Assembly (NCBI RefSeq): GCF_006345805.1
Contig: NC_043008.1
Span: forward strand, 29,822,001-29,886,000
DNA from: Octopus sinensis
Taxonomy: Eukaryota
Direction of reading: 5' to 3'
Length of the DNA: 64,000 bases
This document shows positions 23,020-23,468 of this stretch, one piece after another; the stretch's first letter is position 1; each line of letters opens with the position of its first letter. The notes under the pieces were generated by a model, which worked only from the letters and a program-made list of their open reading frames with translations, searched no databases and had not been told where the DNA came from. The position numbers and the translations under genes were made by a program.

Positions 23020-23332
23020 CGTACCTATTATTATGGGGATTGTTTCTGGTTTTAGGCTCCACATTCGGGTTATCTCCTTCTAAAGATCTTTGTATTTACA
23101 GAGTTTCACTCTTACTTTTAGAGATACACTGTTATCTATTGGGCTTGATACAGCGATTAGAAGAAATTTTTTCTTTTGGTTTCTGACAACTATATTCGGT
23201 CTATTACCCTTGATATATATATATATATATATATATATATAATATATATATATACCGGAGTAAACACATAAATGTGAAACAAGGTGGAAAAAAGAGTACT
23301 CAAATACCAGTGGTACAGTAATATGCTTTATT

Positions 23333-23468
23333 TAAAGCAGCAGAAAATTCAACAACACCTGTTACTCTGAGTTTCTCGTTGCCGTTCATCGGACGGTTTT
23401 TGAACTGTCCGATGAACGGCAACGGGAAACTCAGAGTAACAGGTTTTGTTGAATTTTCTGCTGCTTTA
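23333..23468. ncRNA. Hairpin (arms about 65 bp) formed by two inverted hammerhead-like motifs
   Basis: Plus copy 23405-23442: ctgt CCGATGA a cg gcaa cg g GAAAC tc a ga GT A acag; mirror copy on the minus strand at 23359-23396; 3 mismatches between arms. Confidence 0.7.

Follow-up and report, generated by a model that had tools for sequence, protein, structure and literature searches.

Two hammerhead ribozyme motifs face each other in an insertion at positions 23255–23468 of the window (the 64,000-nucleotide stretch of Octopus sinensis contig NC_043008.1 analysed here, 29,822,001–29,886,000), and both carry C at core position 4, where U is expected. The locus raises two questions: whether this U4C change is decay or an inherited state of the family, and whether the hairpin formed by the two arms has any function. 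A preliminary description had proposed that U4C is a tolerated natural variant and that the hairpin might be a built-in off switch. We think it probable that the insertion is a 5'-truncated, 214-bp copy of a Hydra-clade Penelope-like element (PLE) in a (TA)n target, comprising a tailed pLTR and a second, inverted pLTR, with C4 hammerheads inherited from its subfamily, and that it arose by double-strand priming on uncut RNA.

Layout of the insertion and its hammerhead motifs

The 214-bp insertion is abutted at both ends by (TA)n (read from the sequence at 23213–23254 on the left and 23467–23657 on the right). Beside the left (TA)n is a tail found on one arm only (23255–23332, − strand), which comparison with other copies, including locus L091, places beyond the pLTR end. 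It is followed by the tail-bearing pLTR arm (23333–23398), whose element sense is on the − strand and which breaks off some 7 nt upstream of the core of its ribozyme. A head-to-head junction, TTTG (23399–23402), which varies among copies, joins this arm to an inverted pLTR arm without a tail (23403–23468, + strand) that lacks about 7 nt of the usual terminus, AATAAAG. As described previously (about 65 bp with 3 mismatches, and a one-sided tail reaching (TA)n), the arms are near-identical: they measure 66 bp around the 4-nt centre and differ at 23356, 23376 and 23395. The description of the hairpin as young holds only in a relative sense, since its arms differ at 3/66 positions (4.5%) and those of 49 two-armed copies at 120/3,276 (3.7%).

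Each arm contains the reported motif, CCGATGA-A-CG(GCAA)CG-R-GAAAC-TC-A-GAGT-A, at 23359–23396 (−) and 23405–23442 (+). Both motifs belong to type I and have a 2-bp stem II closed by a GCAA loop, a near-palindromic stem III (ACUC-A-GAGU) and A at the cut site; the predicted cuts fall between 23363 and 23362 in the left arm (−) and after 23438 in the right arm (+). Stem I had been given as ctgt/acag in both arms; this is so for the intact 4-bp stem of the right arm, but the tail-bearing left arm, which has A before GAAA, reads ccgt/acag with one pair broken. The type I core positions C3, G5, A6, G8, A9, G12, A13, A14, A15.1-U16.1 and H17 are all present, and position 4 is indeed C in both arms. 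The G10.1-C11.1 pair that closes stem II is also missing: the window arms have A.G and A.A there and the older subfamilies A-U, and U.U is found at this position in many published Hydra motifs (PMC8557442). The palindromic stem III could allow dimerisation, with a predicted self-duplex of -7.4 kcal/mol. None of the Rfam matches listed for the window (150 of 196) was a hammerhead. We rejected the in-core ATG (MNGNGK...) as an ORF start because older subfamilies have ACG there and the real start lies beyond the tail.

Other features of the window were noted in passing. Hammerhead-like motifs with the canonical U4 occur at 47798 (+), 51857 (−) and 6965 (−), those at 47798 and 51857 being alike, each with a palindromic stem III. 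In the Rfam alignment, 54853–54961 forms an almost perfect inverted repeat (about 40 bp, 26-nt loop) that may be another head-to-head stub. Two broken copies with an RT and a C-terminal restriction-like endonuclease-type region (24400–26614 and 57609–63067, both −) belong to what we take to be a non-LTR retrotransposon family.

The parent element

A DNA search of the 2.72-Gb genome with the window copy yielded 83 matches from 40 scored candidates, and 30 loci were fetched; this query was two-armed, so these first 30 loci favour two-armed copies, and some duplicate one place. The 30 loci share the same tail end and short end and have different centres, and (TA)n directly borders element ends in 47/52 and 54/60 matches (overlapping loci included). 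The family membership of the window copy and its tie to a coding parent are directly supported: longer copies (L094 and L091) have about 1 kb of non-coding DNA upstream and, beyond it, an RT-endonuclease ORF, and C4 cores share loci with ORF pieces of 68–92% identity (for example L101, L102, L107, L109, L112–L114, L118, L122, L131, L132 and L143).

In L094, a single ORF of 723 codons lies upstream of the same pLTR, with an RT followed by a C-terminal GIY-YIG-type endonuclease. It carries YRDD, GVVY..YTG, RLRWKA (RWK) and SDKTRN (DKT), the linker CNCKSESSC (CxCX5C), and CKLC (CxxC) and CRH (CxH); by eye, CCHH was not seen, and GNKY occurs but is not conserved in relatives. A Pfam scan of this ORF found no family. 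Its protein has 2,093 relatives among 7,999 scored candidates, the best listed being 43–58% identical, and a close relative carries PF01541. The first residues of the L094 frame derive from an inversion rather than from the true start; tandem copies (L091, and L030 and L096, which are one locus) run from the tail through a 5' leader to the start MELYPLDFSQKN, with the ATG about 65 nt past the tail end. RWK, DKT, CxCX5C, and CxxC and CxH around conserved E and N match published marks of the Hydra clade, for which CCHH is also described as absent and GxKF/Y as not conserved (PMC8557442), and by the matching motifs the parent appears to be a Hydra-clade element. Pieces of remoter Hydra-like ORFs (about 34–40% identity) lie beside family copies in L138 and L044, which are further families in this genome.

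The element type and the head-to-head arrangement are already known, and the window hairpin is ordinary in this respect. According to Craig et al. (2021; PMC8557442), Hydra-clade PLEs share the RT and C-terminal endonuclease with RWK, DKT, CxCX5C and CxxC/CxH, the (TA)n targets and the pLTR hammerhead with its actc-N-gagt stem III and, in one case, a ctgt/acag stem I. They also share the inverted 5'-truncated copy with a one-sided tail, an arrangement typical of PLEs (PMC8557442, PMC3846280). In contrast to the elements listed there, the family studied here has C4 (versus U4 in all 26 listed rows), a tail of about 70–78 nt (versus 30–40), a unit of about 3.3 kb with a 1-kb 3' region (versus under 3 kb) and a stem II of only 2–3 bp. 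The metazoan PLE dimer hammerheads of Cervera and de la Pena (2014; PMC4209133) are similarly type I, with a short stem I, a palindromic stem III and thousands of truncated copies, some in opposite-strand pairs, but the core variant there is U3-A8 whereas here it is C4 without G10.1-C11.1. The PAc Poseidon element, which belongs to another clade, likewise has a tail between two RT start sites at the pLTR-ORF junction, AT-rich targets and uncut RNA as the main template, according to Frangieh et al. (2024; PMC11167929); the PAc ORF starts inside the ribozyme, whereas here the ATG lies beyond the tail.

Inheritance of C4 and U4

To count position 4 genome-wide, we used one 26-base pattern. Exact cores carried C 2,735 times and T 2,990 times, with 43 instances of A or G; the reversed control pattern gave 0 matches compared to 2,735 for the C4 core, and a decay control, G5A (the CpG change on the opposite strand), gave 63, in the T7 form only. 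Moreover, the base before GAAA, scored by eye, was G or T in 99/100 listed C4 cores and A in 93/100 listed U4 cores. These counts refute the idea that C4 is decay in the window copy or recurrent mutation from a U4 consensus, which also conflicts with the fact that C4 tracks clades defined without the ribozyme columns; we give it practically no credence. In its favour are published sets: all 26 Hydra hammerhead rows in File S2 of PMC8557442 have U4, as does the consensus for metazoans in the supplement of PMC4209133, both sets having been obtained with canonical-core descriptors.

When 61 long copies were placed in a tree on 450 columns outside the ribozyme, they formed a ladder of C4/C7/GGAA/T, C4/GCAA/T and C4/GCAA/G, with U4/GCAA/A nested at the tip. 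The same order came from ORF DNA, after exclusion of four loci whose ORF matches were unrelated or poor: U4 was again nested and youngest. At sites where groups C and E differ, group A matched C at 22 versus 9 in the ORF and at 39 versus 7 in non-coding DNA, and median divergence was 4.1% (A), 2.9% (C) and 1.2% (E). Synonymous codon differences exceeded non-synonymous ones (32 to 23 for A versus C). A short protein tree with outgroups placed the root between A and the rest with weak support and did not reproduce the ladder; late U4 copies were basal within the non-A group in that tree, at low support and contrary to the DNA trees. Copies linked to ORFs occur in each of three successive C4 subfamilies, a direct sign that C4 is inherited, and the window copy, by its core, is of the C4/GCAA/G type. 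We read C4 as the older state in the family, marking these three subfamilies, and U4 as the youngest, likely through one reversion.

A second, unrelated repeat family has a minimal hammerhead with the same change (14505–14535, +), including the CCGACGA noted earlier at 14507. Its core has 9,532 exact matches genome-wide, and position 4 was C in 69 and U in 31 of the first 100 listed; in its tree, the copy at 14507 falls in a tight C4 clade and 6/7 U4 copies fall in one clade. We searched 29 upstream stretches for a coding parent ORF of this family and found none, and it is filed provisionally as a Penelope element on motif shape and (TA)n ends. The copy in the window (14380–14620, +) ends at (TA)n and has a long CA-rich stretch upstream, as do L161 and L164. 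Thus, the proposal that U4C is not decay stands, in that whole amplified subfamilies, and most of the 14507-family copies listed, have C4. It is not fixed in a consensus of the window family, however: about 2,700 copies carry C4, and the family also contains a younger lineage, comparable in size, with U4.

Head-to-head hairpins and their likely route of insertion

One reading of the hairpin is that it is a selected off switch or a unit transcribed and moving as such (MITE-like or retrozyme-like). In a genome-wide search with exact patterns, facing cores within 30 nt were found 692 times as C4/C4 and 590 times as U4/U4 (controls 1 and 0), giving at least 1,282 tight hairpins, some with recurring centres. 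The predicted full hairpin (about -107 to -115 kcal/mol) is far more stable than the ribozyme fold and would be expected to block folding of both ribozymes in a transcript from either strand, but this is a consequence and not evidence of design. The number of hairpins, the recurrence of some centres and this predicted stability are what speak for a functional or mobile hairpin. However, centres vary widely, and those that recur are located at a CTAG palindrome or at A/T runs; head-to-head copies with gaps of up to 1.4 kb, some with ORF, also exist. Arm differences in 49 pairs fall evenly on the tail arm (56) and the short arm (58), at a mean of 3.7%, with only 4 rare variants common to both arms. 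The idea is therefore already largely refuted, and we consider it highly improbable.

Since the hairpin is as common with U4 as with C4 and its centre varies from copy to copy, we conclude that it is an insertion by-product, not tied to C4, and that it likely does nothing for the element. The off switch proposed earlier was thus not borne out: the inverted arm is a known PLE insertion structure. Contigs from three sequencing runs whose RNA origin is only a guess, and from one run of unknown type, contain family sequence; no piece in them spans the window locus, and they were given no weight as evidence. A MITE or foldback DNA transposon was ruled out by the variable centres, the asymmetric tail and the retroelement parent, and a non-LTR retrozyme was set aside because the window locus holds a single head-to-head unit and no head-to-tail tandem array. 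An excess of T-to-C changes in stem I on tail arms (6 versus 1) hinted at RNA editing or two templates; we discounted it, since the window copy shows this pattern and had served as the query of the first search.

The pairs themselves are regular. Exactly one tail was present in 49/49 head-to-head pairs, and position 4 agreed between arms in 42/42 scorable pairs. By analogy with the lizard PAc element, for which two RT start sites with the tail between them and cutting and extension of both strands are reported in vitro (PMC11167929), two-site, two-strand priming is the most likely route in this family. The element protein would cut both strands in (TA)n and then prime on uncut RNA, with one strand starting from the tail end and its partner from the pLTR end; each cDNA would stop a few bases upstream of the ribozyme, and the two would be joined head to head, in many cases at a short palindrome. 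A published alternative explains such junctions by self-priming on an antisense template (PMC3846280). Arm ends fell within 20 nt upstream of the core in 35/61 arms (L031–L090), and did so more often with C4 (24/31, or 21/28 without three arms that lack a good reference) than with U4 (11/30; P=0.002). This pile-up may mark the RNA 5' end, possibly a transcript start, or may be an effect of the CTAG palindrome.

Possible cleavage by the C4 ribozyme

We considered what the copies indicate about cutting. Among the C4 groups, 0/26 constrained ribozyme columns changed, compared to 60/392 flank columns (P=0.037) and 3/8 free columns, a modest test on 37 hand-grouped copies with 4 in group B; such constraint might arise from protein binding or promoter function instead of catalysis. 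The changes between subfamilies are at N7, one base of the GNRA loop II, the stem III palindrome centre and the base before GAAA. Truncations at the predicted cut or one base past it numbered 9 of about 52, compared to about 4.3 expected (P=0.03), in a count made by eye among the first 100 of 676 rows with about 48 indels dropped, but peaks of 6 and 5 lay at other places and most junctions showed microhomology. Judged by eye, about 69 of 100 listed arms extend across the entire uncut core. The C4 ribozyme would be a weak, dimer- or protein-dependent cutter whose fold was still under selection in the source elements, and cutting would not be required to make these copies. PLE hammerheads are reportedly weak even with U4 (PMC4209133), and the PAc hammerhead needs protein (PMC11167929).

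The missing G10.1-C11.1 pair, together with a predicted competing hairpin, implies that C4 cores may instead be dead. The same element would then have spread without cleavage, with the sequence kept for protein binding or promoter activity, and U4 would have come back through a neutral C-to-T change at a CpG; we think this possible but rather unlikely. In the C4/GCAA/G subfamily, C3-C4-G5 is predicted to pair with stem II, and an active-like dimer of the window subfamily is predicted at -11.2 kcal/mol, compared to -19.0 for the best fold. U4C considerably lowers activity in vitro (PMC3088659), most copies come from uncut RNA, PAc ribozyme mutants insert normally in vitro (PMC11167929) and Naiads thrive without canonical hammerheads (PMC8557442); moreover, CpG transitions are 1.4–2.3 times those at other C/G sites. 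In contrast, the subfamily changes hit positions that are free in the hammerhead and not its core or stems, amplification at position 4 was confined to pyrimidines, and this in two families, and a viroid U4C variant remains infectious (PMC3088659). We lean towards the weak-cutter reading. The viroid variant and a search descriptor in use, CYGANGA, with C or U seen at position 4 (PMC13481778), represent the same natural, pyrimidine-only substitution; unlike those viroid and virome motifs, the motifs here are minimal, have no evident stabilising loops and are present in thousands of chromosomal retrotransposon copies. We found no report of U4C as a fixed state of Penelope subfamilies in the literature searched, in which coverage of work on these ribozyme variants was incomplete.

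An unlikely but more far-reaching interpretation is that U4C is a self-cleavage dial, lowered on two independent occasions by Penelope elements of this genome. If so, a cut by the downstream ribozyme would part the ORF from the RT start sites unless the RNA were circularised; a weak C4 would favour tiny copies run off the RNA 5' end, and the return to U4, with the G-to-A change that relieves the predicted misfold, would favour long copies. The case is weakened by the genome-wide hairpin counts (692 for 2,735 C4 cores and 590 for 2,990 U4 cores), a smaller contrast than in the 61-arm length sample. Were it true, the subfamily series would be a natural experiment on the role of the ribozyme in retrotransposition.

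The role of the hammerhead in PLEs is described as unclear (PMC8557442). Searches that fix CUGANGA miss about half of the ribozymes of the window family and about two thirds of those of the 14507 family. Here, a single core base separates near-identical natural motifs whose order of descent is known and each of which is present in thousands of insertions, and C4-versus-U4 activity could be read against evolutionary success.
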